Shown here: positions 3,702 through 17,830 of the stretch, one piece after another
Layout of the letters: each line of letters starts with the position of its first letter
Position numbering within the stretch: the stretch's first letter is position 1
From: Patescibacteria group bacterium
GTDB taxonomy: Bacteria; Patescibacteriota; Minisyncoccia; Sungbacterales; JBBTQR01
Length of the DNA: 18,060 nt
Reading direction: 5' to 3'
Assembly: GCA_038065595.1 (NCBI GenBank)
Contig: JBBTQR010000017.1
Coordinates: 1-18,060, forward strand
Translations under genes and position numbers: made by a program
The notes under the pieces: model-generated
Database searches by the model: none
What the model was told of the DNA's origin: nothing
Seen by the model: only the letters and a program-made list of their open reading frames with translations

Positions 3702-4946
3702 CTACTCATACCGCAACGCTTCAATGGGGCTTTTAAGCGATGCTTTTCGCGCGGGATAAATTCCAAAAACAAGCCCCGTAAGCGTGGAGATGCCCACTGC
3801 TAAAAATATAGAGTTCAGCGAAAGAATAAATATCCAACCGGTCGTGAGAAATTGCTGAAGTGCAAAATACGCAAGCGCAACAACCAAAGAACCAAGCGCG
3901 ATTCCGATTATTCCCCCAGCAAAAGTAAGAATTACCGCCTCCAATAAAAACTGCTGGAGAATGTCGCCATTCGTAGCGCCGACCGCTTTCCGAAGTCCTA
4001 TTTCTTTCGTTCGCTCAACAACAGACACAAGCATAATATTCATAATTCCGATACCGCCGACAATAAGCGAAATGAAAGCGATTGATGTCAAAAAAATAGT
4101 CATAATGGAAGTGATATTTCCTAAGAGCGAAAGGGCGTCTTCCTGCGTTCGAATGGAAAAATCATCTTTATCCGGATCGGTAATGCGATGATTTTGGCGA
4201 ATAACAGAGGTAATGCGCCCCTTTGTAAATTCAATGATGTAAGCGTCATTTGCTTGAATAGTAACGCTGTTGTAATAATCAATTCCTAAAAGTTGTTTTT
4301 GCGCGAGTAAAATCGGAAGAAGAATGAGATTATCCTGATCAACCCCGAAAGGCCCGATCCCCTTCTGCTCTAAAATACCAACGACGCGAAACGAAAGATC
4401 TTTAAGACGAATAACTTTACCAATTGGGTCTTTCTCGCCAAAAAGTGTTCGTGCGATTTCTGAACCAAGCACGGCAACGCGATTAAGGGATTCATTGTCC
4501 GATGCAGAAAAACTTCTTCCCCGTGCGATTTCAAAATTCCGTATGGCGAAAAATTCTTCCGTCGTTCCTGTATAGGTAATCATTGCGTCGTTATTTTCAT
4601 AGACAACCCGTGCCTGTCCGCGAACCTCTGGAGCAGCGCGAATAACACTCGGTTCGCGCCTGAGCGCATCAATGTCCGCTTTCACGAGCGTTTTAATGAT
4701 TACTCCTTGCACCGACGCAGGAGAAGCAAATCTAGAGCCTTTTGTAGCGCCCGGAACGACAAAAATTAAATTTGATCCTATTCCCTGCACCTGACTTAAA
4801 ATAAGATTTTGCGCGGAAGCGCCGATTGACATAAGAACGATAACCGATGATATGCCAATAATAACACCGAGCATCGTCAATGCGGAGCGAACTTTTGCGT
4901 GCCGAATGCCGGCAACTGCCGTTCTAAAAGAATCAATAAGGCGCAT
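3702..4946 (-). CDS. ABC transporter permease, MacB/FtsX family (MacB periplasmic domain + FtsX 4-TM domain)
   Basis: 414 aa. It has an N-terminal TM helix, a large extracytoplasmic domain, and three C-terminal TM helices in the FtsX arrangement. It sits downstream of an ABC ATPase and a membrane-fusion protein. Confidence 0.85.
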   Translation of the reverse strand: MRLIDSFRTAVAGIRHAKVRSALTMLGVIIGISSVIVLMSIGASAQNLILSQVQGIGSNLIFVVPGATKGSRFASPASVQGVIIKTLVKADIDALRREPSVIRAAPEVRGQARVVYENNDAMITYTGTTEEFFAIRNFEIARGRSFSASDNESLNRVAVLGSEIARTLFGEKDPIGKVIRLKDLSFRVVGILEQKGIGPFGVDQDNLILLPILLAQKQLLGIDYYNSVTIQANDAYIIEFTKGRITSVIRQNHRITDPDKDDFSIRTQEDALSLLGNITSIMTIFLTSIAFISLIVGGIGIMNIMLVSVVERTKEIGLRKAVGATNGDILQQFLLEAVILTFAGGIIGIALGSLVVALAYFALQQFLTTGWIFILSLNSIFLAVGISTLTGLVFGIYPARKASLKSPIEALRYE

Positions 4947-4994
4947 ATAAATTTCTACATTATAATTTCCAATGCAACGCGTACATGGCGTAAT

Positions 4995-5705
4995 TTATTT
5001 AAAAAATCCCTCTCCGTTTATGCGGTGTTTTTTCATCAGTTCGTCAACTTCAATCTCCCCATCTTTAAGACGAATAAGGCGATTGGCAAATTCAGCGGTA
5101 TAGGTCTCATGCGTCACCAAAATTATCGTGTGCCCCCCTTTGTTTAGTTTTTCCAAAATATCCATAATCTGCGCGCCAGCGGCAGAGTCAAGATTTCCTG
5201 TCGGCTCATCAGCAAAAATAACATTCGGCTTATTAACAAGTGCTCGCGCTATGGCAACTCGTTGCTTCTGTCCGCCAGACAATTTTCCTGCCTCAGTGTA
5301 TGTTTTTTCAGAAAGTCCAACGGACTGAATCGCTTCCTCAATGCACGAACGGCGCTGTGAAGGAGGGCTATCGGAATATATAAGTGGCATCTCAACATTC
5401 TCGTACACGGTTGAACGCGACAAAAGATTGAATGATTGAAAAACAAATCCCATTTCGCGATTCCTAATTCGCGCTAAGTCAGCATCAGAAAGCTCGCCGA
5501 TGCTTTTTCCAAAAAATGTGTACACACCGCTCGTCGGACGGTCCATAAAACTCAAAATATGAAGAAGCGTTGATTTTCCGGATCCAGACGGACCCATAAT
5601 TGATACGAATTCACCTTTTTTAATTTCAAAAGAAACGCTTTTAAGCGCTGTGATCGGAGCCCCCTCATCAGTAAATTTTTTCGTAATGCTTTCTGCGATA
5701 ATCAT
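4995..5705 (-). CDS. ABC transporter ATP-binding protein (MacB/LolD-like)
   Basis: Walker A GPSGSGKST, ABC signature LSGGQKQRVAIARAL, Walker B IIFADEPTGNLD, and H-loop. It has an ATGA start/stop overlap with the upstream MFP gene. Confidence 0.95.
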   Translation of the reverse strand: MIIAESITKKFTDEGAPITALKSVSFEIKKGEFVSIMGPSGSGKSTLLHILSFMDRPTSGVYTFFGKSIGELSDADLARIRNREMGFVFQSFNLLSRSTVYENVEMPLIYSDSPPSQRRSCIEEAIQSVGLSEKTYTEAGKLSGGQKQRVAIARALVNKPNVIFADEPTGNLDSAAGAQIMDILEKLNKGGHTIILVTHETYTAEFANRLIRLKDGEIEVDELMKKHRINGEGFFK

Positions 5706-7264
5706 TCGCCCGCTTCTTTAAGTCCGACATTTATAACTCGTTCCCCCTCGCTAACACCAGAAACAATTTCTACAAGCCCCTCTTTACCGCGCACGCCAAT
5801 AATAACGGGCACATCTATGATTTTTTTGCCGTTTCTTTTACGAACAAATACTCCATTATCAGTTTCTACGATTGCAAATTGCGGTAATACCAAAACTCCA
5901 TCTTTACGAGCTGTTTCAATAGAAAGATTCGCGGTAAGCCCGCTTTTTAGGCGTGGGTCATACGCATCAAAACTAATAAAAATTTTAAAATTAACCACTC
6001 CGTCAACAATCGTCTCTCCGGGTTCAATAGAAAAAACTTTTCCGATAAAACTCTCTTCCGAAAAAGCATCCACGGTAATCGCAACAAAATTCCCAATTAA
6101 AATTTTTCCAATATCAACCTCCGGAACAAACACTTCAATTTCGTTCTGCTCAAGCGAAATAACCGAAACAATCGCAGAATGTGGCGCGATAATTTCTCCC
6201 TGTTTTGCGTCTTGTTTTGTGATGATTCCATTTATTGGTGAACGAAGAATATTTTTTTCAATCTGTGCGCGAATTCCAATCACCTTCGCTTCCGCCCCCT
6301 TAACTTCCGCAACCTGCACAGCGATTTCTTCCAAAGTTGGTCCTGCCTTTTTAAGGATCAGCTCATTTTTTTCAAGTAGTGAAGAGGAATTGGCGACGCG
6401 AAATTTCTCCTCCGCCGCGGAAAGATTTGTAATGGCGGTATTGATGTTTGTCCGCGCGGTTGAAATGTTCAATCTATATCCGTCAATAGTCGCCTGCGTC
6501 AATCCACCTCCCGCAATCAAGCTATTAACTCCTAAGGCAATCAGATCGGTAAAACCCCTAACCGTTTCAAGATTTTTTTTCGCATCAGCGATGCCAATAG
6601 TCGCGTTTTTGAACGATGAAACAGAAAAATTCTGTTCTGCCCACACGCGAAGGATCTGCTCAATCAAAAATCGCTGATTTTCTGCTAACTGTTTTTGATA
6701 AAATCCTATGATAGAAATCTGCGGACTTGAACTTCGTGGATTATTAAAAAGCTGATCAACAAGATTTCTCACCGCGTCATCGGATTTTGTATATGCGTCG
6801 CGCAACCTATCAAAAAGATTTTGCTCCGCATCTTCAATGGCAATTTCTGCGCTTCGCACTTTTACCTCTTGAATGGCAATCTCTTCTGGACGAGTTCCTT
6901 GCCGTAATTGATCAAGTTTTGCATTTTGTGTCGCGACGCTCGCTTCCATCTGCAAAAGTTCTGCAGACAACTCTTTTTGATCAAGCTCCACAAGAATCTG
7001 TCCCGTTAAAATACGATCTCCGACGCGTGAAAAGACCCGCCGTACCTTCCCTGACCCCTCAAAAGAAAGGGAAACGCTCTCAGTTGGTTTTATTTTCCCG
7101 GTCACAATTACCTCCTCTGCAACGGTTCCGCGAACCACTTCAATGGTTTCTAATTTTGGTGTGGAACTTTTGAAAAAAATATAATACACTCCGACGATTC
7201 CAATTATAATCGCGAGAGGAACAATGAAAGCTTTTTTTAAAATTATTCCAGTAATTATTTTCAT
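5702..7264 (-). CDS. Efflux membrane-fusion (periplasmic adaptor) protein, HlyD/MacA family, long coiled-coil variant
   Basis: 520 aa. It has an N-terminal TM anchor and biotinyl/lipoyl-like beta segments (VVRGTVAEEVIVTGKIKP … ILTGQILVELD). A long helical-hairpin region and a C-terminal beta-barrel follow. It is the first gene of a three-gene operon. Confidence 0.85.
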   Translation of the reverse strand: MKIITGIILKKAFIVPLAIIIGIVGVYYIFFKSSTPKLETIEVVRGTVAEEVIVTGKIKPTESVSLSFEGSGKVRRVFSRVGDRILTGQILVELDQKELSAELLQMEASVATQNAKLDQLRQGTRPEEIAIQEVKVRSAEIAIEDAEQNLFDRLRDAYTKSDDAVRNLVDQLFNNPRSSSPQISIIGFYQKQLAENQRFLIEQILRVWAEQNFSVSSFKNATIGIADAKKNLETVRGFTDLIALGVNSLIAGGGLTQATIDGYRLNISTARTNINTAITNLSAAEEKFRVANSSSLLEKNELILKKAGPTLEEIAVQVAEVKGAEAKVIGIRAQIEKNILRSPINGIITKQDAKQGEIIAPHSAIVSVISLEQNEIEVFVPEVDIGKILIGNFVAITVDAFSEESFIGKVFSIEPGETIVDGVVNFKIFISFDAYDPRLKSGLTANLSIETARKDGVLVLPQFAIVETDNGVFVRKRNGKKIIDVPVIIGVRGKEGLVEIVSGVSEGERVINVGLKEAGE

Positions 7265-7275
7265 AGTACAGCGTC

Positions 7276-7310
7276 ATTGTATCATAAAAAAATTTCACCA
7301 CCTATACCCG
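7276..7310 (-). promoter_or_regulatory. Candidate extended -10 promoter for the efflux operon
   Basis: The minus strand reads TGATACAAT (TGnTACAAT) at 7284..7276. The MFP ATG is about 12 nt downstream with no SD, giving a short-leader mRNA. Confidence 0.4.
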
Positions 7311-7329
7311 CGACATCACCACTTTCAAT

Positions 7330-7992
7330 TTAATGATTTAGCATTTCCAGCAAAATTGGCTTGATTCTGTCGGCGATTATGCGATACCCCTCATCATTTG
7401 GATGTATTGCATCGTACATATAACGAGAACGCCCAAAAACGCCAGAAAGAACATCGGGGATATACGAAACTTTTGTTTTTTGCGCGAGAGATTTAAATTC
7501 TTTTTTATACGCGTCAGAAAAAAACCCGCCACGGACCCCCAAAAGTAATACGGCGCTTCCCTGCGCGTGAATACGGGCGATTATCTCTTCTAAATTTCTA
7601 AATGTGTCCAAAGGTTTGTAACGGCGAATTGCATCATTTCCACCCAAAAGCAAAATAACGATTTTTGGATCATGATTCAAAACATCCAGCGAAACGCGCG
7701 TAAGAGCGGAAAATGTCGTATCGCCGGAAATTCCTGCGTTAATAATTGGTATTTTTAATTCTTGCGACAACAGCGAAACAAGATCATTGCCCTGCGATGA
7801 TCCAACTCCCTCAATTAAACTATCTCCAAAAGCAATAACCGCGCTTCCTGTGCGCGGTTTGTCAATGTATCGGCGATCCATTGAAAAAAAATAAAAAACA
7901 CCTCCCAAAATCAGGACGCCAAACACCGCAATTATTACTTGTGAATTTGTCATGCGCACAGAGCGTGTGCTATTATATATACTCGCATCCAT
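7330..7992 (-). CDS. SGNH/GDSL-family hydrolase (lipase/esterase-like) with N-terminal membrane anchor
   Basis: SGNH blocks: block I FGDSL, block III GGND, block V DAIHPN. An N-terminal TM helix is present. An alternative start (MTNSQ…) lies 13 codons in. Confidence 0.85.
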   Translation of the reverse strand: MDASIYNSTRSVRMTNSQVIIAVFGVLILGGVFYFFSMDRRYIDKPRTGSAVIAFGDSLIEGVGSSQGNDLVSLLSQELKIPIINAGISGDTTFSALTRVSLDVLNHDPKIVILLLGGNDAIRRYKPLDTFRNLEEIIARIHAQGSAVLLLGVRGGFFSDAYKKEFKSLAQKTKVSYIPDVLSGVFGRSRYMYDAIHPNDEGYRIIADRIKPILLEMLNH

Positions 7993-8967: not shown

Positions 8968-10281
8968 TTAGACCGCTTTTGCCGCCTCTTCAACGGTAGT
9001 GACCCCCATTAAAACTTTTTCACGAGCGGCGTCTTTCAATGTTTTCATGTTGGCACTCGCAACATATTCTTCAAGAACGCTCATTGAGCTTCGCTCAATT
9101 ATTAACGAACGAAGATTGTTGTCAAGTTCTAAAACCTCATAAATGCCCGTCCGCCCCTGATACCCAGTTCCTCTGCACGCCTCACATCCCATCCCTTTTG
9201 TAAACGAGTATGAATTTTCATCAAGCCCAAAATACAAAAGATATTCAGGATCCGGCACATACGATGAACGACATGTATTACAAATTTTTCTAATAAGTCG
9301 CTGGGAAACAATTCCGTTTAAAGCATATGCAATTAAACTTCGCTCAATATTCATATCTAAAAGACGGGCGATTGTTCCGATGGTCGTATTTGAATGAATC
9401 GTTGAAAACACAAGTCGTCCGGTCAAAGAAGCGCGGATAGTATATTCCGCTGTATCAGCATCTCGAATTTCGCCAATCATAATGATATCAGGATCCTGAC
9501 GAAGAATTGAACGCATGCCGTCTGCATAATTATATCCCTGATCAGGTTTAATTTCGCTCTGCCTAATATCTTTGAAGTGATATTCAACGGGGTCTTCAAG
9601 GGTTATAATGTTTTTTTCTTTTGAACGCAAAGACTGCAGAATTGAATACAGCGTCGTTGATTTGCCTGACCCTGCCGGACCCGTTACAAGAATCATTCCA
9701 TATGTTCGCGCAATCAATTTTTTAAATACCCCAAAATTCTCGGGGCTCATTCCAAGGTTTTCAGGATGCACCAATACTTCTTGCCGATTCAAAACACGCA
9801 AGACGGTCGCTTCACCGTTAATGACGGGGAAAACAGAAACACGAACATCAAGCATCATCTCGCTATTTTTTGAAGCATCCAGAACCGCTCCGACTTTCTC
9901 TTGCTTTTTTTGATCAGTGGCCTTTGCGATAATAAAAAGCTTTGAAAGCCTGTCAACGAACGGCACAGATTTTTCGTCTCCTTGCTCTGAGTACAACTGC
10001 CCAACGCTTGCTGAAAAGTGCCCTTCAACGGGCATTGGATGACGAACGAGAGGAATGTCAGATGCGATTTTAATGCGGTTTAAAATAGATTCGTACTCAT
10101 ACAGCGGAATAGACGCGTGTTCCTGTAAAATTCCATCAACACGAAAACGAATGCGGAGAACATCTAATAATGGCTCAATGTGAATATCGGAAGCACGATC
10201 TTCAAGCGCGCTCGCGAGAATTATTTTGAGAGGATCTTCGTTTTTTAAATCATTCTTTTGTAACATAAAAGTTTTACGCAA
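8968..10281 (-). CDS. Type II secretion / type IV pilus assembly ATPase, GspE/PilB family
   Basis: Walker A GPAGSGKSTT, Asp/His boxes (IMIGEIRD, TIHSNT), and a C-terminal tetracysteine motif CNTCR…CEACRGTG. The position 10281 start is a TTG, and an ATG (MLQKNDL…) lies at 10266. No pilC/pilT/pilM partners are in the window. Confidence 0.9.
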   Translation of the reverse strand: MRKTFMLQKNDLKNEDPLKIILASALEDRASDIHIEPLLDVLRIRFRVDGILQEHASIPLYEYESILNRIKIASDIPLVRHPMPVEGHFSASVGQLYSEQGDEKSVPFVDRLSKLFIIAKATDQKKQEKVGAVLDASKNSEMMLDVRVSVFPVINGEATVLRVLNRQEVLVHPENLGMSPENFGVFKKLIARTYGMILVTGPAGSGKSTTLYSILQSLRSKEKNIITLEDPVEYHFKDIRQSEIKPDQGYNYADGMRSILRQDPDIIMIGEIRDADTAEYTIRASLTGRLVFSTIHSNTTIGTIARLLDMNIERSLIAYALNGIVSQRLIRKICNTCRSSYVPDPEYLLYFGLDENSYSFTKGMGCEACRGTGYQGRTGIYEVLELDNNLRSLIIERSSMSVLEEYVASANMKTLKDAAREKVLMGVTTVEEAAKAV

Positions 10282-11161: not shown

Positions 11162-12028
11162 TTATTTTGAAACAACAATCATTGCCGAACGAATTTGTTC
11201 AAATGGCTCGTTTTTACCAGTTACATAATCCATAAGAGCGCCCTCTAATATAGCGTACCCATAACGATACCCTGCCCCCCGATATGTGCCAGGATCATTT
11301 GTAATAAATTCTTGCGCTGTGTCATCGTATCCTGTAATGAGAATTTTATGCCGTTCTGGCCCTGGTTCTGTATAAAATGAATTTTTCAATTTACGACCAT
11401 CAACAGGAACGATAACGAGATTACCGTCTGCCAGCTCTTTTTTAATATCTTTTATGGTAATGTCATAGCGCAAAAACGCATTTGTATATCCAAAATAATC
11501 TTTAATAATCCGATCAAGCGTGTCCTGTGAAGATGTGTCGTGAAATTCGCCGTATTTTTTCTTTTCAAATTCAGATATCGCGATAATTTCTTGAAGAGCT
11601 TCTTCTGGGGTGAGTTTTTTTCCTTCTGCCCAACGAATTGCCATAAGCGAAGCAGCTTCTTCACATCCGTAATCCTGCCGTGGATCATTCCAATCGGCAT
11701 ACGGCGCCTGCGCGGTGAACGGGGCATCAATGAGTATTTTTGTTGAGATTTTGATTGGAGTCGGAATTTGTGTTATGTCGGAAGAAGACGCTGTTTGATT
11801 TTCAACTATAGATAAAAGATCGACTGGCTTCGGGGGTGGTTGGGTTGCAATCACCGGAAGCTCTATTTCTTTTTGCACATTTTTTTCAATGTTTTTTTCA
11901 GCGCTCAAAAAAAGAAATTCGTCCGAACGAACGAATTCCAACTTAGAGATTAGAAAGAAAACAAAAATCGCAATGATCGTTGCGGTAAAAAGCGTAAAAA
12001 GAAAAAATTTTCTTGATATATTACTCAT
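11162..12028 (-). CDS. Membrane-anchored C39-like cysteine peptidase (peptidase_C39_2 / BtrH-like papain fold)
   Basis: N-terminal TM helix, then a PPPKP linker. Candidate catalytic motifs are Q…DYGCEEAASLMAI (Gln/Cys) and HKILITGYDD…FITNDPG (His/Asp), as in C39-like domains. Confidence 0.55.
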   Translation of the reverse strand: MSNISRKFFLFTLFTATIIAIFVFFLISKLEFVRSDEFLFLSAEKNIEKNVQKEIELPVIATQPPPKPVDLLSIVENQTASSSDITQIPTPIKISTKILIDAPFTAQAPYADWNDPRQDYGCEEAASLMAIRWAEGKKLTPEEALQEIIAISEFEKKKYGEFHDTSSQDTLDRIIKDYFGYTNAFLRYDITIKDIKKELADGNLVIVPVDGRKLKNSFYTEPGPERHKILITGYDDTAQEFITNDPGTYRGAGYRYGYAILEGALMDYVTGKNEPFEQIRSAMIVVSK

Positions 12029-12046
12029 GGTGCGTATTGTTATTTT

Positions 12047-12080
12047 ATTATATCACCCTTCCAGCTTTTTCAAAAATCAA
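12047..12080 (-). promoter_or_regulatory. Candidate extended -10 sigma70 promoter for the C39 peptidase gene
   Basis: The minus strand reads TTGAAA-N15-TGATATAAT, with the TGnTATAAT at 12055..12047. The ATG follows about 20 nt downstream with no SD. Confidence 0.45.
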
Positions 12081-12084
12081 ATTT

Positions 12085-12113
12085 TAAAAGCCGTGCTTTC
12101 GCACGGCTTTTAA
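12085..12113. terminator. Rho-independent terminator (bidirectional) ending the sigma/anti-sigma/secreted-protein transcription unit
   Basis: Stem agccgtgc / gcacggct with loop tttc, flanked by AAA and TTTT. It lies just downstream of the minus-strand gene ending at 12142. Confidence 0.7.
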
Positions 12114-12141
12114 AGAATCAAACGACTAATCCGTTCTTTCG

Positions 12142-13122
12142 CTATTGCAAACTTTCATTTCTCACGACAGTCGCATTGATTGTCGTTCCTTCAAGCGCGC
12201 CGTAAACGCGAATCTTGTGACCAACAAGGAATTGCGATAAAGTCGCCCGCGCCCATAATTTATTTAAGATTGATGTGTCAGGCACAATCTGAACTGTATA
12301 GTCAGTTTCGCTCTTGCGTATAACAATCGTCGTCGGAGCCGTTGTTGAGGCAACAGACTGCAGCTTGCCTTCAAATACCCGCTGAAGAATAGCGTGATCA
12401 ACGAATATTTTTATTTTCTTCGCATCAAGCGTGTTCTGAAGATTATTCCAAACGCCTTGCACATTTATTTTGTCTCCCATTTTAATATCTGAAAACGCAA
12501 CATGAACCCCCGCCTTCATAATTTCAGTTGAACTCCCAACAATAATCGTTTGTAATCCCCTATCTTCAGCATCAAGCATAAAGCTCGTTGAGGATGCGCT
12601 CATTGAAAGAACCCTTCCAAAAAAAGAGGCGTTCCGTTTCTGCACAGACCAGTTTTTTATGTAAGTTGCGCGAACCATAAATAAATCAGCGGTGTCCGCG
12701 CGAAGCATGCCATGTACCGTGAGAAAATCGCCGACGGAAATTTCCGCGATAGAAGAATTCCCATTAAATCGTCTCATAAAATTCGTATTGCCATCAGTTT
12801 CAATTCGCACGCGAAGAGAAAAACTCCCCCATGAAATTATTCCGTGTATCGTTGATGACGCTGAAACAGAATCAACTTTTATATTTTGAAACACGCTTTT
12901 TCCGTTGTTATTGATCTGAATAGATGAGCCCGAAGGAATGTCATCGCCTCGCTTGTCGCGCATATCAACACGAAGTTCTTTTTTCCCGTGAGAGTCATCA
13001 TCCCCGCCTTTATCTGTGTCTTTTTTCGCAAACGCAAATTCTGGAGACATAAACAAAGCGCTTCCTACAATGCTCAATACCGCAAACGCTAAAAATGATT
13101 TTATAGCCATATGTGTAAACAT
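12142..13122 (-). CDS. Secreted protein with tandem ~90-aa beta-rich repeats (possibly DUF5666-like)
   Basis: A signal peptide with an AFA|KKD cleavage motif is present, in-frame with the ATG at 13110 (MAIKSF…). An acidic linker follows, then about three tandem beta-rich repeat units (…VHGML…VRATYI…, …AGVHVAF…, …RVYGALEGTTINATVV…). Its position after a sigma/anti-sigma pair is typical of an envelope stress module. Confidence 0.6.
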   Translation of the reverse strand: MFTHMAIKSFLAFAVLSIVGSALFMSPEFAFAKKDTDKGGDDDSHGKKELRVDMRDKRGDDIPSGSSIQINNNGKSVFQNIKVDSVSASSTIHGIISWGSFSLRVRIETDGNTNFMRRFNGNSSIAEISVGDFLTVHGMLRADTADLFMVRATYIKNWSVQKRNASFFGRVLSMSASSTSFMLDAEDRGLQTIIVGSSTEIMKAGVHVAFSDIKMGDKINVQGVWNNLQNTLDAKKIKIFVDHAILQRVFEGKLQSVASTTAPTTIVIRKSETDYTVQIVPDTSILNKLWARATLSQFLVGHKIRVYGALEGTTINATVVRNESLQ

Positions 13123-13154
13123 TAATTTAATTAAAAATTTTTGACCCTACTATA

Positions 13155-13183
13155 TAGACGAAGTAAGCTGGATTTTCTTACAA
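13155..13183 (-). promoter_or_regulatory. Candidate ECF-sigma-type promoter (TGTAAG-N16-CGTCTA)
   Basis: The minus strand reads TTGTAAG (13183..13177), a 16-nt spacer, and CGTC (13160..13157). This resembles the SigW/SigX/SigM-class consensus TGwAAC-N16-17-CGTC/CGTA. It lies about 30 nt upstream of the secreted-repeat protein gene. Confidence 0.4.
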
Positions 13184-13235
13184 AAACTCTATCGCGGTCC
13201 ATAAGAAAATATTTTTAATCAAAACGCTACCCACA

Positions 13236-14429
13236 CTATTCCATAAATTCGCTTTTTTTATGGGCCTTTTCGCGCATTTCATCTTTTAGAGGGCTTTTAA
13301 TTTTTTCGCCGGAGGCGGACACGCCTTGTTCATTTTCTGATCCTCGTTCATCGTTTGTATCATTTAAATCACGCCCCCGCTTCTTTTCTTGTTTCTCGGT
13401 GCGGTCTCTTCGTATTTCGTTTTTATTTTCATTATGATTATTGTCCCCATTTTCCTCTATTGAAACCTGTATGTGAAATTCCTTATTTGCATTGATCAAT
13501 ACCCGCGCCCTTTCAAGCGTTCTCATCGCTTTCTGAAAAAGCGAAAAGGCTTTGCCGTATTTCCCCTCATTTTGTTTCGTTTTCCCTTCGGCAATTATTT
13601 CAATTACACCTGAAAGTCGTTTTTTTATTTCGTCTGTTGCCAAATCTCCCGATCCTAATGCGATGCCGTCAATAAACGCGTTCATTTCCTGAAGTTTTTT
13701 TTCTACTTCCACACGCATATCTTCGGAAGATTTTTTTGCTTTGTCGTCTTTTTTGTTTTCAATATTTTCTTCTAAATTTTTTCTTTTTTTACCAACTTCC
13801 CGTATAGCATTTTGCGCCGATACGGTAATTGGCGCAAGCGCATAATCCGAATCCGCGTCATCTTCGGTTAATTTTTGAAGGATTTTATCATGCGCCTCAA
13901 GTTCCGCCTCAAAATTAGAATTAATGCGCGCTGCGACTTCAAAATCTCCACCATTTTCAATGGTTGCTATTTTTATTTCTGCGTTTTTACGATGCTCGTT
14001 GAATTTTTCCTGAAGGGCTAAGCGAACCTCTGGCGTAATAATTCTTTTTTCAACCGTCAATCGTTCGGACTCTTCCAGTCGTTTTGTAGCAAGTTTTGTT
14101 TCCCATTCTACCCTTGATTTTGGAGAAAATTTTAACAATCCACGAATCTCTTCGTTTACATTAATTTTTACCGGATACAGAATATCTCCGGGAAGCGTTC
14201 CCTCTGCTCCAAATGCGATTCCCGCTCCCGAAAGCATGCTTGCGATAAGCACGAGTGGAACGGTTCTGTGTATCGCGAAAAACGCGAAAAGCTGGTCGCG
14301 TAATGCCACGCGAATCGGTGGGCGATATGCGTGCATATAAATGCGAAGCTCATTTCTAACGCGCGCGCGTTCATTTTCGGCAAGAGATATATTTTTCGCT
14401 TGCTGTATTATTTCGTGAAAGTTTTTCAT
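13236..14429 (-). CDS. Putative membrane-anchored anti-sigma factor (short cytoplasmic N-domain, 1 TM, long coiled-coil/charged ectodomain; possibly DUF5667-like)
   Basis: It has an ATGA overlap with the upstream ECF sigma gene. A single TM helix lies around residues 60-80 (LVLIASMLSGAGIAFGA). The K/E-rich helical extracytoplasmic region ends in a low-complexity acidic/basic tail. Confidence 0.55.
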   Translation of the reverse strand: MKNFHEIIQQAKNISLAENERARVRNELRIYMHAYRPPIRVALRDQLFAFFAIHRTVPLVLIASMLSGAGIAFGAEGTLPGDILYPVKINVNEEIRGLLKFSPKSRVEWETKLATKRLEESERLTVEKRIITPEVRLALQEKFNEHRKNAEIKIATIENGGDFEVAARINSNFEAELEAHDKILQKLTEDDADSDYALAPITVSAQNAIREVGKKRKNLEENIENKKDDKAKKSSEDMRVEVEKKLQEMNAFIDGIALGSGDLATDEIKKRLSGVIEIIAEGKTKQNEGKYGKAFSLFQKAMRTLERARVLINANKEFHIQVSIEENGDNNHNENKNEIRRDRTEKQEKKRGRDLNDTNDERGSENEQGVSASGEKIKSPLKDEMREKAHKKSEFME

Positions 14430-14992
14430 ATTTCAAAAATATGTTTTACCGATTGTAATCCTCGATGAATACGCACTGAAACGGCGTTTTCGCTTTCATT
14501 CAAAATCTTGGCAATTTCGCTAGGCGACATATCATCAACATACCGCATAATTACAACATCCCGATATTTTTTATCAATGGAATTAATCGCTTCAATGACC
14601 TCGCGTGTTTCAGCCGAATGACGCATAGCGATGTGTCCGGCTATCGCGGGATCAAAACCAAATTCTTCCTGCATTGTATCCAAAGATTCTTCTCGTTTTT
14701 TCTTCCAGTCATCAATGATTAAATTATTGGCAACTTTATATAAAAACGCTCTGATGTTGGTAACTTCATTGCCGGAAGCAAGATATTCCCATGTCTTTGT
14801 ATACGCTTCCTGCATTACATCGCGCGCGATTTCTTCGTCATATACACGGAAAAAACAATGCCTAAATATGGCGTCAGAATGTTCATCGTATGCATTAATA
14901 AACGGTATTAAACCATTTGTTCCGACGGCACGCTGAGGAGGTGTGCGGAAGCGCCCACCTCCCTCATCGCTTGTCGTAATAAATTTTTCCAT
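14426..14992 (-). CDS. ECF (group IV) RNA polymerase sigma-70 factor
   Basis: Region 2 is FRHCFFRVYDEEIARDVMQEAYTKTWEYL. Region 4 HTH is DVVIMRYVDDMSPSEIAKILNESENAVSVRIHRGLQSVK. The start is ambiguous between the ATG at 14992 (MEKFITTS…) and a TTG at 15058. Confidence 0.9.
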   Translation of the reverse strand: MEKFITTSDEGGGRFRTPPQRAVGTNGLIPFINAYDEHSDAIFRHCFFRVYDEEIARDVMQEAYTKTWEYLASGNEVTNIRAFLYKVANNLIIDDWKKKREESLDTMQEEFGFDPAIAGHIAMRHSAETREVIEAINSIDKKYRDVVIMRYVDDMSPSEIAKILNESENAVSVRIHRGLQSVKHIFEI

Positions 14993-15001
14993 TTCATTAT
15001 T
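14969..15001. repeat. 33-bp perfect direct repeat, copy 2 (covers the ECF sigma ATG and first 8 codons on the opposite strand)
   Basis: The same 33-mer as at 8166-8198. On the minus strand it reads AATAATGAA-ATG GAA AAA TTT ATT ACG ACA AGC, which is nt -9 to +24 of the sigma start. Confidence 0.9.
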
Positions 15002-15155
15002 ACCCGTATTGTTCTTTATATAAGACGAAATAATGCCATATTTCTTACGCAAAAACAATGCAAAATGGCAAGAGTATAAACTCCTGTTTTTTTTAAAACC
15101 CCCTCATTCCCGTCTGTTTATATAAAGATTTTTTATACTGGCAAGCAAAAAACTA

Positions 15156-15181
15156 CCAATAAAAACAAGTGTTTTTATTGG
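15156..15181 (-). terminator. AT-rich hairpin followed by a T-run on the minus strand (possible terminator or insulator upstream of the sigma promoter)
   Basis: ccaataaaaac-aagt-gtttttattgg is an 11-bp stem. On the minus strand it is followed by TAGTTTTTTG. Confidence 0.3.
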
Positions 15182-15254
15182 TACAAAAAAGTTATCCACA
15201 GTTATGCATACAATTACACTTGCGTATTTTTTTCGCAGTGATAGACTATAAAAT

Positions 15255-15345
15255 GTAACTTAGGTTACATCGTTCTTTCATCTCGGGGCTTCGGTCCCAC
15301 ATTTTCTCTTCTTGGGGTTTGCTACGGCAAACCCTTTTTATTTTA
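15255..15345 (+). ncRNA. Candidate ~90-nt small RNA (three hairpins including a C(UUCG)G tetraloop, with an intrinsic terminator)
   Basis: On the + strand the first hairpin is gtaac-ttag-gttac (15257-15270). The second is gggGC-UUCG-GUccc (a 5-bp stem with a G-U wobble and a UUCG tetraloop). The third is the terminator ggggtttgc-tacg-gcaaaccc followed by TTTTTATTTT (15314-15345). A weak upstream promoter reads TTGCGT-N16-TAGACT (15220-15247). There is no ORF, and it is antisense to the flanking minus-strand genes. Confidence 0.35.
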
Positions 15346-15784
15346 ACTAGACTAGATATGATCATTTCTCACGATAGAACAAAAACCGCCAAATGCGTGT
15401 GCACATTACCTTCCGGTTCCACATGGACCACGGCATTGCTTGCGTCAATTGTCGGAGAACGATGAGTTGTTTTTGGAGTAGAACGAATTCCCAAGCTTGT
15501 TACATTTGGAGCAAAAAATCTTAATACATATAAATAGGCGTATACATTCGCGCATTCTAAAATTCTTATGGCGGGACCGACACTCAGACTTCCCCAAGAA
15601 GCTCCATTCAATAAAATTCTCGTTTCAGCGGCCGCCGATACTATGTTAAAAGGTCTGGTTCTACAATTAAAAATCGGGGGGCACTTGTCATCCCGATACA
15701 AAACCAAATCTGGAAAATAAAAAAAACCGCAAACGAAAAATTAAATATAGAAAAATTCGACGGGTTTGCGTTTGTTCCACTTGT

Positions 15785-15821
15785 TTAAAAAATCCCCAAT
15801 TCGCGATATCGCGAATTGGGG
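15785..15821 (-). terminator. Rho-independent terminator of the flotillin-like gene
   Basis: A 28-nt perfect palindrome ccccaattcgcgat|atcgcgaattgggg (15793-15820). On the minus strand it is followed by ATTTTTTAAAC, and it lies 36 nt after the stop at 15857. Confidence 0.75.
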
Positions 15822-15856
15822 GCTCTGCTCATTTATAGAGCGTTTCTCCTTCTGCT

Positions 15857-17830
15857 TTAAATTTTCTTTGTAGCGCCCTCCTTTGTTTCCAGTGATAAAG
15901 GCTCGGAAGGTTCGCTCGTTTTTGCGCCATCTTTCGTTCCACGCGCTAAATCCTTCAGCATCGGAATCAGGAGAGCGAATGGAGACGCAGACGATCCGTT
16001 TCCGCTTCCGGCTACATACGCTTCCGGAACAATCGGATGCTTACTTTCTGCAAGTTTGGCAATAGCTTGAATTACCATAGCGTTCTCTTGGCCAAGAGCT
16101 CCAGCGAGGGCTTGCAAAGTTTTTTCTATATACTCTGCTTCGCCAAGAGCCTCTTTTTTCCGCGCCGTTGCCATATCTTCCCGAATCTGAATTTCTGTTT
16201 GCGCGTTGACAACGTCCTTTTTCCTATTGGCCCGCGCAGTTGCCTCCTCCTTTTCAGCGCGTTTTTCTTCTGCCTCCTTTTCTACCTTAAGCGTTTCCTT
16301 GCTCGCTTCAGCGATGGTGCGATTTTTCCGCACAGTCATATATTCAGAATCGCCAATTACTTCTTGGATGATGATATCTTCAAGCTCAACGCTAAATAGC
16401 ATTAGCTCTTTTCTCATTTCGTCTTTAAGCTTGGCGCGAAAAGTCTCTTGATTATCAAGAAGATCTTCGGCGTTACTATCGCGAACAGCCTTTGTGGCAA
16501 ATCCAAGCATTCGCGCTGCCATAAAATCCTTGATAAACCCATGCATTGAACCAAAACTCGCAATAACCATTGACGCTGACTCACTCGGAACAACGGCAAG
16601 GGCATCAACATCAAGGGTCATTGAAATATTATTTTTTGAAAGCGCTGTGATGCTTTTCAATTCTTTATCAAGTCCGTGATCCGAACTTCTATTTGGACTG
16701 AAAAAAAGCGTCAAAAGATTCGTCTGCGCTCTATGAATTTGCAAGACCTCAGTATTGATAAGATACTGCCCCTGCGAAAGAGCGTTGTACCACACCCCGT
16801 GATGTCCCGGGCGAACGATTGCTCCATATTTGAAGACGGCGTCTGTAATGTCAAAAGCAGGAAGTCCTAAGCCAGCACTTATGACAAGCGCTTCTCCGGG
16901 AGCAACCGTGACGATGTCAACTATTTTAACCGAGAAAAGCTTTTTGTTGATTGCATAATTTCCTGACGCAAGTGGATAAAACTGCGGTCCCATTTTTCCG
17001 CCATTCTCAAAGAATGCTGCGGGATTCTGGAAATTTTCATGCAGATTATTATTTGACCGCAAGACATATTCCAAAAGTTTTTGACCAAGTTCATGCTCTT
17101 TGTCTTTTCTCGTATCCCATAATTCGGTTTTCAGAATTTTTGGATTATCAAGTTCAGCTTCTTTTCGCGCGACATCCCCAAACTCTCCAATACGACACGC
17201 AACAGCATCAGGTGGAAGCGGAGACCCGTCCAAACAGGTAACAATTCCCATTTTCTGATTTGAAATCGTTGTAAGTTCAAAATCCTCTTTTGTAAATCCA
17301 AAATCCTTATACGAAAGAGTTCTCGCAACTTGTTTTTCAACAAGATCAAGATCCGACATAACGCCGAAAACTTTTGCAAGCGTTGCAATGGTAAATCCAA
17401 CTGGATGAATCGGAAGGAATGTTCCCGGAGGCAGAACGAGTCGCTGAATACCCTTTTGACCGTTCTCAAGAATAAATTTTCTAATATCCTCAAACCGTCC
17501 GTACACCTCTTTATATTCAGCGGTCTTCTGCCCGGGTCTTAATCCGTGTCCAACATTCGCAATCACATACCCGATCTTATCTCCTTCAACGCGAGCCCAC
17601 GGATGGATTTCGTGCCGATAGAAAATTGGATCGGCGTAGCGCCACCCTGACATTTTGAGAGTCGGCTGATATCCCGCCTCATTTCGAAATGCGACAGGAT
17701 CACGCGTTGCGCCATTGAACGAAAACCGTTTATACAGAATACCAATATGATGCGCCGGAACCTCAAAGATTCCGAACCATATATACACGCCCGCGACTAC
17801 GATCGCTAAAAATCCTAAAAAGATTTCCAT
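15857..17830 (-). CDS. Flotillin-like SPFH/Band-7 domain membrane protein (long form)
   Basis: 657 aa with a good SD (GGAAGGGGGATTCAG-ATG). It has an N-terminal TM helix and a central SPFH-like region. The C-terminal E/A/K-rich heptad region (KEAEEKRAEKEEATARANRKK…ARKKEALGEAEY) is typical of flotillin (FloT/YuaG-like) coiled-coil 'flotillin repeats'. The Ser/Gly-rich tail may be disordered. Confidence 0.6.
   Translation of the reverse strand: MEIFLGFLAIVVAGVYIWFGIFEVPAHHIGILYKRFSFNGATRDPVAFRNEAGYQPTLKMSGWRYADPIFYRHEIHPWARVEGDKIGYVIANVGHGLRPGQKTAEYKEVYGRFEDIRKFILENGQKGIQRLVLPPGTFLPIHPVGFTIATLAKVFGVMSDLDLVEKQVARTLSYKDFGFTKEDFELTTISNQKMGIVTCLDGSPLPPDAVACRIGEFGDVARKEAELDNPKILKTELWDTRKDKEHELGQKLLEYVLRSNNNLHENFQNPAAFFENGGKMGPQFYPLASGNYAINKKLFSVKIVDIVTVAPGEALVISAGLGLPAFDITDAVFKYGAIVRPGHHGVWYNALSQGQYLINTEVLQIHRAQTNLLTLFFSPNRSSDHGLDKELKSITALSKNNISMTLDVDALAVVPSESASMVIASFGSMHGFIKDFMAARMLGFATKAVRDSNAEDLLDNQETFRAKLKDEMRKELMLFSVELEDIIIQEVIGDSEYMTVRKNRTIAEASKETLKVEKEAEEKRAEKEEATARANRKKDVVNAQTEIQIREDMATARKKEALGEAEYIEKTLQALAGALGQENAMVIQAIAKLAESKHPIVPEAYVAGSGNGSSASPFALLIPMLKDLARGTKDGAKTSEPSEPLSLETKEGATKKI

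Follow-up and report, generated by a model that had tools for sequence, protein, structure and literature searches.

An apparently autoregulated extracytoplasmic function sigma factor and its putative DUF5667 anti-sigma partner recur across Patescibacteria

Patescibacteria, also called the Candidate Phyla Radiation (CPR), are episymbiotic cells with tiny genomes, and we know of almost no regulators that have been studied in them. Here we describe a locus on an 18,060-nt stretch of DNA (the window) from an uncultured member of this group sampled from Hainich groundwater, in which the gene of a sigma factor of the extracytoplasmic function (ECF) type overlaps the gene of a putative membrane-bound anti-sigma factor and is followed by a gene for a secreted protein. 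The second of these genes encodes a DUF5667 protein of 397 aa, identical copies of which are found on the ENA contig Hain_H41_02um_R2_2083 and on an NCBI contig of a metagenome-assembled genome (MAG) labelled "Patescibacteria group bacterium". An earlier reading of the DNA without database searches (the sequence-only reading) had joined the three genes with that of a C39-like cysteine peptidase into a single envelope module and placed the four open reading frames (ORFs) at 14426..15058, 13236..14429, 12142..13122, and 11162..12028. All four lie at these coordinates on the minus strand, and the predicted domains (Sigma70_r2 plus r4_2, DUF5667, DUF5666, and Peptidase_C39_2) all exceed the gathering thresholds of Pfam. 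The sigma operon and its control elements comprise the following features:

15154..15183, minus strand: terminator-like hairpin, ca. 105 nt upstream of P1
15023..15048, minus strand: P1, predicted ECF-type promoter of the sigma operon, GTAAGAAA-N11-TTCGTCT
14426..14992, minus strand: ECF sigma factor gene, 188 aa from ATG 14992 (identified by Pfam and TIGR02937; start from the position of P1 and the start of the orthologue in the related locus L062)
13236..14429, minus strand: putative single-pass anti-sigma factor, 397 aa, with an ATGA overlap with the sigma stop codon
13156..13182, minus strand: P2, predicted second ECF-type promoter, before the DUF5666 gene, TGTAAGAAA-N11-TTCGTCT
12142..13122, minus strand: secreted DUF5666 protein, 326 aa, with a signal peptide (…SPEFAFA, followed by KK), a charged linker, and three OB-folds
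12083..12114, minus strand: intrinsic terminator hairpin of 14 pairs with a T-run, ending the sigma/anti-sigma/DUF5666 unit

The sigma protein matches the Pfam families Sigma70_r2 (33.8 bits) and r4_2 (52.9 bits) and no other sigma region, so that it has the composition of ECF (group 4) sigma factors, i.e., regions sigma-2 and sigma-4 only, in a chain whose 188 aa fall within the usual ca. 160–200 aa. It scores 73.7 bits against the general model TIGR02937 (sigma70-ECF; cut-off 42.9), while no named NCBIfam sigma subfamily passes its threshold (SigW 76.1 versus 209, the SigM subfamily 77.8 versus 147.95, and SigX 53.7 versus 260). The identification as an ECF sigma factor was thus borne out by the general model, without a named subfamily to go with it. 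The start of the gene had to be revised: both the sequence-only reading and the public annotation begin at TTG 15058 (ORF 14426..15058), and a copy of the promoter motif described below (P1, 15048..15023) sits inside this extended ORF. The gene therefore most likely begins at ATG 14992, the first in-frame ATG, which lies downstream of P1 and agrees with where the L062 orthologue starts, so that the sigma genes of this lineage appear to be annotated too long in public records. Compared with its L062 orthologue, the sigma factor of the window has ca. 26 additional aa (ITTSDEGGGRFRTPPQRAVGTNGLIP…) inserted near the N-terminus (window 14992..14880 versus L062 6037..6070).

Relatives of the locus were collected by scanning one genome per species with a 7-sequence DUF5667 alignment, which yielded 52 loci, nearly all from labelled Patescibacteria lineages (three carry another phylum label or none). 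In 50 of them the gene immediately ahead of DUF5667 encodes an ECF sigma factor, and the remaining two are cut by contig ends. The ATGA overlap seen between the two genes in the window has its counterpart in 26 of the 52 loci, whose sigma and DUF5667 reading frames likewise overlap, and in 15 more the distance is within 15 nt (41/52). This shows that the sigma and DUF5667 genes are a translationally coupled pair that recurs in the MAGs of Patescibacteria collected here. In two loci from Magasanikbacteria, the first sigma/DUF5667 pair is immediately followed by another ECF sigma gene (L026 7657..8292 and L034 5585..6162). In L026 this second sigma gene is followed by a 499-aa ORF, and two downstream ORFs among those scanned match DUF5667, so the pair may have been duplicated in tandem there.

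The 397-aa protein matches DUF5667 (PF18915) over aa 77–188 with 31.7 bits (cut-off 27), and the same domain is present in 19/19 relatives found. A cytoplasmic N-terminus of ca. 45 aa with the conserved motif …L-x-E-x-E-R-A-R-V-R-x-x-L… precedes a transmembrane helix at ca. aa 55–77, behind which an invariant LPGDxLYPVK motif follows; judged from the basic residues ahead of the helix in the translation, the protein is single-pass with its N-terminus inside. The long helical ectodomain expected from the sequence alone reappeared in an AlphaFold2 model built from 15 sequences, which is all-helical over ca. aa 80–320 at a predicted local distance difference test (pLDDT) score of mostly 85–95 and ends in a charged, disordered tail (pLDDT <50). 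A search of PDB sequences with the DUF5667 profile gave nothing significant, and the ectodomain has no specific structural match.

The third gene of the unit encodes a protein that matches DUF5666 (PF18914) in two stretches with 38.7 bits (cut-off 27), in line with relatives that are annotated with the same family. Its prediction as a secreted protein of beta-rich repeats held up well: behind the signal peptide and a disordered N-terminus, AlphaFold2 (45 sequences, mean pLDDT 84.8) modelled three beta-barrel domains at ca. aa 67–157, 162–240, and 248–322 that each have the five-stranded closed barrel topology of an OB-fold. The gene may start at ATG 13110 rather than at 13122. A profile search found 68 DUF5666 proteins including the query cluster, whose named sources are Patescibacteria lineages, "bacterium", or metagenome, and the DUF5666 profile gave nothing significant among PDB sequences either. 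NCBIfam has no name for the DUF5667 protein, the DUF5666 protein, or the peptidase; we found no paper mentioning DUF5667 and only incidental mentions of DUF5666.

What ties the sigma factor to these genes is a promoter-like motif. The sequence-only reading had pointed out a TGTAAG-N16-CGTC element at 13182..13157 (minus strand), within the 113 nt that separate the anti-sigma gene from DUF5666, and taken it for an ECF promoter that makes the secreted protein a direct target of the adjacent sigma factor. We found that the core of this element, GTAAG-N16-CGTC, has exactly two matches in the window, both on the minus strand, compared to an expectation of 0.03, and that none of 200 shuffled sequences reached two. 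The second match, P1, lies before the sigma gene itself with its -35 element GTAAG at 15048–15044 and its -10 element CGTC at 15027–15024. Both sites share the longer pattern GTAAGAAA-N11-TTCGTCT, and each stands ca. 32–35 nt ahead of a start codon; transcription would start near 15016 from P1 and near 13149 from P2. In L062, where the anti-sigma protein is 71% and the DUF5666 protein 80% identical to that of the window, both sites are kept with intact -35 and -10 elements, while the spacer of P2 has diverged. A sigma-type promoter of its own before the sigma gene is the hallmark of an autoregulated ECF system, and the sigma operon appears to be regulated in this way.

The motif is not confined to the window and its closest relatives. 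A relaxed form, G[TA][AC]A[GT]-N16-CGTC, is found at the start of the sigma gene in ca. 41 of the 52 loci, with the consensus TGTAAGA-N15-CGTC. In the 581 kb of DNA scanned from these loci it has 83 matches compared to ca. 27 in shuffled sequences, and 42 of the 83 lie at the sigma gene. Because about 27 matches are expected in this amount of DNA, those before the genes of PGI, NusA, and trigger factor were set aside as probable chance occurrences. Further matches precede envelope-type genes near the sigma gene in three loci (L006 8287, L007 4302, and L024 5491, minus strand), which encode a SIMPL/DUF541 protein, a protein with PG_binding_1 and FN3 domains, and a surface protein with an Ig domain (He_PIG), respectively; these genes may be extra members of the regulon. 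The claim of a SigW/SigX-class promoter stands at the level of the class, i.e., in the -10 element CGTC and the 16-nt spacer that recur at the sigma genes, but not in the -35 element, which reads GTAAG here and GTAAT, GAAAG, or GTCAG in relatives.

In 23 of these 41 loci, CGTC is followed after only 4–10 nt by the first in-frame sigma ATG, e.g., in L007, L010, L016, L018, L021, L024, L030, L031, L033, L038, L046, L048–L050, L053–L055, L058, and L060. Such a short distance implies that the sigma mRNAs start at or next to the start codon, and many relatives therefore appear to make leaderless sigma transcripts. In the closest relative (L005/L062), too, an in-frame ATG follows CGTC at a distance of 5 nt. 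This codon reads ATA in the window (15024..14992), whose sigma gene therefore probably uses the downstream ATG 14992 with a short leader of ca. 24 nt.

DUF5666 genes carry the motif even where they are not linked to a sigma gene. Among 21 non-redundant loci with unlinked DUF5666 genes, eight have the strict motif within 300 nt upstream, compared to 4/68 other genes there (Fisher p = 8e-4), and it is also present in two of four further long contigs with DUF5666. The variants at these genes include TGTAAC and TGTCAGATT…CGTC, the latter with an extended -35 element that is also seen at the sigma genes of other lineages. These results support the view that the DUF5666 protein is a conserved member of the regulon, also in genomes where its gene lies elsewhere. 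The proposal of an ECF promoter before the secreted protein has thus been strengthened on three sides, by the second copy at the sigma gene, by the ca. 41 relatives, and by the unlinked DUF5666 genes.

Taken together, we think it likely that the sigma and anti-sigma factors of the locus form an ECF switch under positive autoregulation, with a single direct target encoded next to it. In this model the cytoplasmic N-terminus (ca. 45 aa) of the DUF5667 protein would keep the sigma factor at the membrane until an extracytoplasmic cue acting on the helical-bundle ectodomain frees it, be it by proteolysis or by a conformational change. The freed sigma factor would then guide RNA polymerase to P1, amplifying its own operon, and to P2. 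No terminator was found by a terminator scan between the anti-sigma and DUF5666 genes, so transcripts from P1 probably run on to the hairpin at 12114..12083, which would close the transcription unit and has a counterpart at the same place in L062. P2 and read-through from P1 would together boost the Sec-exported three-OB-fold protein, which could serve at the cell surface as the output of the response or as its modulator. On the other side, the hairpin at 15154..15183 would shield the sigma operon from upstream transcription; L062 has a hairpin with a T-run directly upstream of its P1 as well.

Several observations weigh against this model. The -35 element lacks the canonical AAC of ECF promoters, and ca. 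60% of the unlinked DUF5666 genes have no strict motif upstream. As for the DUF5667 protein, Pfam finds no zf-HC2, RskA, or other anti-sigma domain in it at E ≤ 0.1, its residues 1–50 contain no cysteine and thus no zinc-binding (ZAS, HxxxCxxC) site, and its N-terminus is modelled at a pLDDT of only 45–65. The part of the sequence-only reading that called it an anti-sigma factor holds insofar as the protein is the regular partner of the sigma factor (50/52 loci). Since no known anti-sigma domain was detected, we infer this role from the gene context, the topology, and the conserved short N-terminus.

Among other ways to read the locus, the one that fares best concerns the secreted protein, which could be a co-regulator in the manner of RseB or CnrX that binds the DUF5667 ectodomain and tunes the release of the sigma factor in a feedback loop. 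The order of genes for a sigma factor, an anti-sigma factor, and a secreted protein in one unit resembles rpoE-rseA-rseB, the expression of DUF5666 appears to be sigma-dependent as judged from the motif, and OB-folds are binding modules. However, the two genes lie apart in ca. 24 of the 26 loci from metagenomes as well as in every other sigma/DUF5667 locus, which would be unusual for an obligatory partner. In the 26 metagenome loci with DUF5666 relatives neither a DUF5667 nor a C39 gene is adjacent, and one pair of loci has an ECF sigma gene ca. 2.7 kb away. We regard a co-regulatory role as rather unlikely, and it is compatible with the autoregulated switch rather than exclusive of it.

The same findings that weigh on the anti-sigma assignment could alternatively mean that the DUF5667 protein is the first member of the regulon, a co-transcribed envelope protein, and that the sigma factor is controlled otherwise, e.g., by transcription only. 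The missing anti-sigma domain would then need no explanation, nor would the very short cytoplasmic part and its low-confidence model. We nevertheless consider this decidedly unlikely in view of the near-universal adjacency and coupled reading frames of the two genes, the conserved N-terminal motif ahead of the transmembrane helix, and the single-pass topology with the N-terminus inside. Short sigma-binding peptides are also known from other systems, e.g., from class II anti-sigma factors such as CnrY, and CnrY-like anti-sigma factors are listed in PMC7826278.

The four-gene module of the sequence-only reading assigned a role to the C39-like peptidase, which would cleave the anti-sigma ectodomain in a site-1-like manner or mature the OB-fold protein. 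The features that bear on this proposal lie directly downstream of the sigma operon:

12047..12073, minus strand: predicted promoter of sigma-70 type for the peptidase gene (TTGAAA, 15-nt spacer, extended -10 element TGaTATAAT), read from the sequence
11162..12028, minus strand: membrane-anchored Peptidase_C39_2 protein, 288 aa, a neighbour whose membership in the regulatory unit is not supported

In this protein, a membrane anchor at the N-terminus is joined by a proline-rich linker to a full Peptidase_C39_2 domain (PF13529; 49.7 bits, cut-off 24, profile positions 3–142 of 143). In 28 relatives, Q107, C122, and H227 are invariant and D245 is conserved to at least 90%, which makes them the putative catalytic set, and the anchor would place this intact set outside the cell. 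The four genes are also adjacent both in the window and in L062. However, all four occur together only in the species of the window and in L005/L062 (71–80% identical), where synteny with the window extends over the whole region from an SPFH gene to a type IV pilus ATPase and makes the linkage uninformative. No C39 gene lies beside the sigma/DUF5667 pair in the ca. 50 other loci, in which the pair is followed by housekeeping genes without relation to it (e.g., those for G6PD, RNase Y, MscS, and glutamate dehydrogenase), and none lies beside DUF5666 in ca. 25 loci.

The hidden Markov models (HMMs) initially used for C39 and DUF5666 in this comparison had been built from near-identical sequences and could miss distant relatives, and the neighbours were therefore re-checked with Pfam and a broader C39 HMM. 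This left the conclusion unchanged except for L090 (3313..4938 of GCA_964643135.1), an unrelated CPR locus in which a 176-aa C39_2 protein is encoded directly upstream of DUF5666, with a TGAAAG-N16-CGTC site between the two genes. A weak match to vasohibin, which has a cysteine-protease fold, is found at the same position in L093. Both neighbours speak weakly for a link between peptidase and OB-fold protein, but the L090 protein belongs to a different subfamily and has no signal or anchor sequence, and one extra adjacency in ca. 27 loci is suggestive at best.

The transcription signals separate the peptidase from the sigma operon, too. As the sequence-only reading had noted, a terminator is followed by a promoter of the peptidase's own, with the strong hairpin at 12114..12083 and the extended -10 element TGaTATAAT at 12055..12047 (TGgTACAAT in L062). 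This promoter is outside the rules of our promoter scan because of its 15-nt spacer, and a search of the window for the ECF motif found none ahead of the peptidase gene. The peptidase thus seems to have a transcript of its own, made from a promoter of the housekeeping type, and its participation in the switch is not supported. Its family is very large and widespread, with 1616 cluster representatives at E ≤ 0.001, and its sequence gave nothing significant in the PDB. Even peptidase activity is uncertain given a report of a C39-like archaeal protein that acts as a glycosidase (PMC13642728). Overall, we find a four-gene module very unlikely.

Finally, it is exceedingly improbable that GTAAG-N16-CGTC is another regulator's binding site or a chance repeat instead of a promoter, as its non-AAC -35 element might suggest, because its count in the window is far above the chance expectation of 0.03, its spacing is fixed at 16 nt, it keeps a constant distance from start codons (with ATG 4–10 nt behind CGTC in 23/41 loci), and its occurrence follows that of this sigma family and extends to DUF5666 genes.

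In some relatives the motif occurs a second time at a place where a promoter would have a different consequence. GTAAG-N16-CG[TA]C is found inside the DUF5667 gene of 15 relatives (L010, L011, L012, L014, L015, L016, L017, L019, L023, L024, L026, L034, L036, L041, and L044), in frame and ca. 90–120 nt after the inferred start of the gene (e.g., at L016 6091, L023 6073, and L036 3745), where it coincides with the peptide P-V-R-x5-R. The codons used for this peptide are strongly skewed towards the motif: valine is encoded by GTA in 15/15 cases compared to a background of 26% (p ca. 2e-9), the first arginine by AGA or AGG in 13/14 compared to 27%, and the second arginine by CGT or CGA in 15/15, with a C always following although the next residue varies. 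This codon use points to selection on the nucleotides themselves. A methionine at the start of the transmembrane helix, 41–89 nt downstream, is present in 14 of the 15 genes with the motif compared to 7/38 without it, a difference that kinship may inflate. The arrangement suggests an internal sigma-dependent transcript that would code for the membrane-spanning helix and the ectodomain but leave out the part that binds the sigma factor. The DUF5667 gene of the window itself has neither the internal motif nor the methionine.

We tentatively raise the possibility, without counting it as probable, that the sigma/DUF5667 pair is the founding example of a Patescibacteria-wide ECF group. Such a group would be characterized by a non-AAC -35 element, often leaderless sigma transcripts, a short zinc-free sigma-binding segment, and an OB-fold surface protein as its main output; in some lineages, a sigma-dependent promoter inside the anti-sigma gene would additionally produce a truncated sensor without the sigma-binding part. 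If functional, the internal element would be a new way of tuning ECF signalling, and the truncated sensor composed of transmembrane helix and ectodomain would be a previously undescribed feedback device. Our literature search found nothing on ECF sigma factors in Parcubacteria or the CPR, and the main text of the ECF re-classification paper contains no mention of these phyla.

The DNA around the locus adds some observations of its own. In the gap upstream of the sigma gene no RNA gene was found with Rfam (on the whole window, and in E-value mode on 15000–15900) or with ARAGORN. The gap contains the frameshifted remnant of a protein-L-isoaspartate methyltransferase (PCMT) gene (15376..15785, plus strand), recognized by tblastn as two pieces in different frames that are 68–78% identical to the intact gene of L062. 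A 112-aa minus-strand ORF antisense to this remnant (15369..15707) is probably spurious, and the DUF2238 gene of L062 is absent from the window. Downstream of the locus (minus strand, 3702..7992 and 8968..10281), the identical contig L001 has Pfam hits to the HlyD-like adaptor, the ABC ATPase, and the permease (domains MacB_PCD and FtsX) of a MacB-type ABC system, to a GDSL lipase, and to an ATPase of type II/IV secretion. The gene of the latter is split into two ORFs in the NCBI copy L002 and intact in the window.

With a recurring sigma/anti-sigma pair, a recognizable promoter, and at least one conserved target, the system offers a handle on surface sensing in CPR cells, and the consensus TGTAAGA-N15-CGTC could be used for regulon prediction straight from metagenomes.

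Individual components of the region can be set beside known proteins. The DUF5666 protein resembles periplasmic bacterial OB-fold (BOF) stress proteins such as YgiW, as well as YobA of Bacillus subtilis, at the level of the fold only, with 12–16% identity; unlike these, it has three tandem OB domains and matches Pfam DUF5666 with no BOF hit. The neighbouring peptidase resembles the papain-like cysteine peptidases of the Peptidase_C39_2 family (PF13529) in its full-domain match and its Gln/Cys/His/Asp set, while the C39 peptidases that process bacteriocins as part of ABC exporters differ from it, as it has no PF03412 hit and no transporter fusion.

For the DUF5667 protein, the closest parallel in layout is CnrY of the CnrH-CnrY-CnrX system of Cupriavidus, a class II anti-sigma factor in which a sigma-binding segment of a few tens of residues precedes one transmembrane helix. 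The DUF5667 protein of the window shares the very short cytoplasmic segment, and a Pfam scan detected no sequence similarity between the two. CnrY has almost no ectodomain and relies on the separate sensor CnrX, whereas here a helical ectodomain of ca. 240 aa is part of the same protein.

The system as a whole is most like the SigW-RsiW operon of Bacillus subtilis and the rpoE-rseA operons. It shares with them a sigma factor with regions 2 and 4 only, a single-pass membrane protein encoded by the next gene in a coupled frame, what appears to be a sigma-dependent promoter of its own with a CGT-type -10 element and a 16-nt spacer, and envelope proteins as putative targets. Its sigma factor scores far below the cut-off of the SigW model and so is not a SigW orthologue. 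Moreover, and unlike in SigW-RsiW, its anti-sigma factor has no zinc-binding HxxxCxxC domain, the ectodomain is a DUF5667 helical bundle, the -35 element is GTAAG, GTAAT, GAAAG, or GTCAG instead of TGAAAC, and many relatives apparently have leaderless sigma mRNAs. The architecture in the window itself is canonical and matches an ordinary envelope-stress switch, so our results mainly give a putative function to the DUF5667 and DUF5666 genes and drop the peptidase from the proposed module. By analogy, the system would work like those of the SigW-RsiW/RpoE-RseA type while standing outside all named subfamilies.

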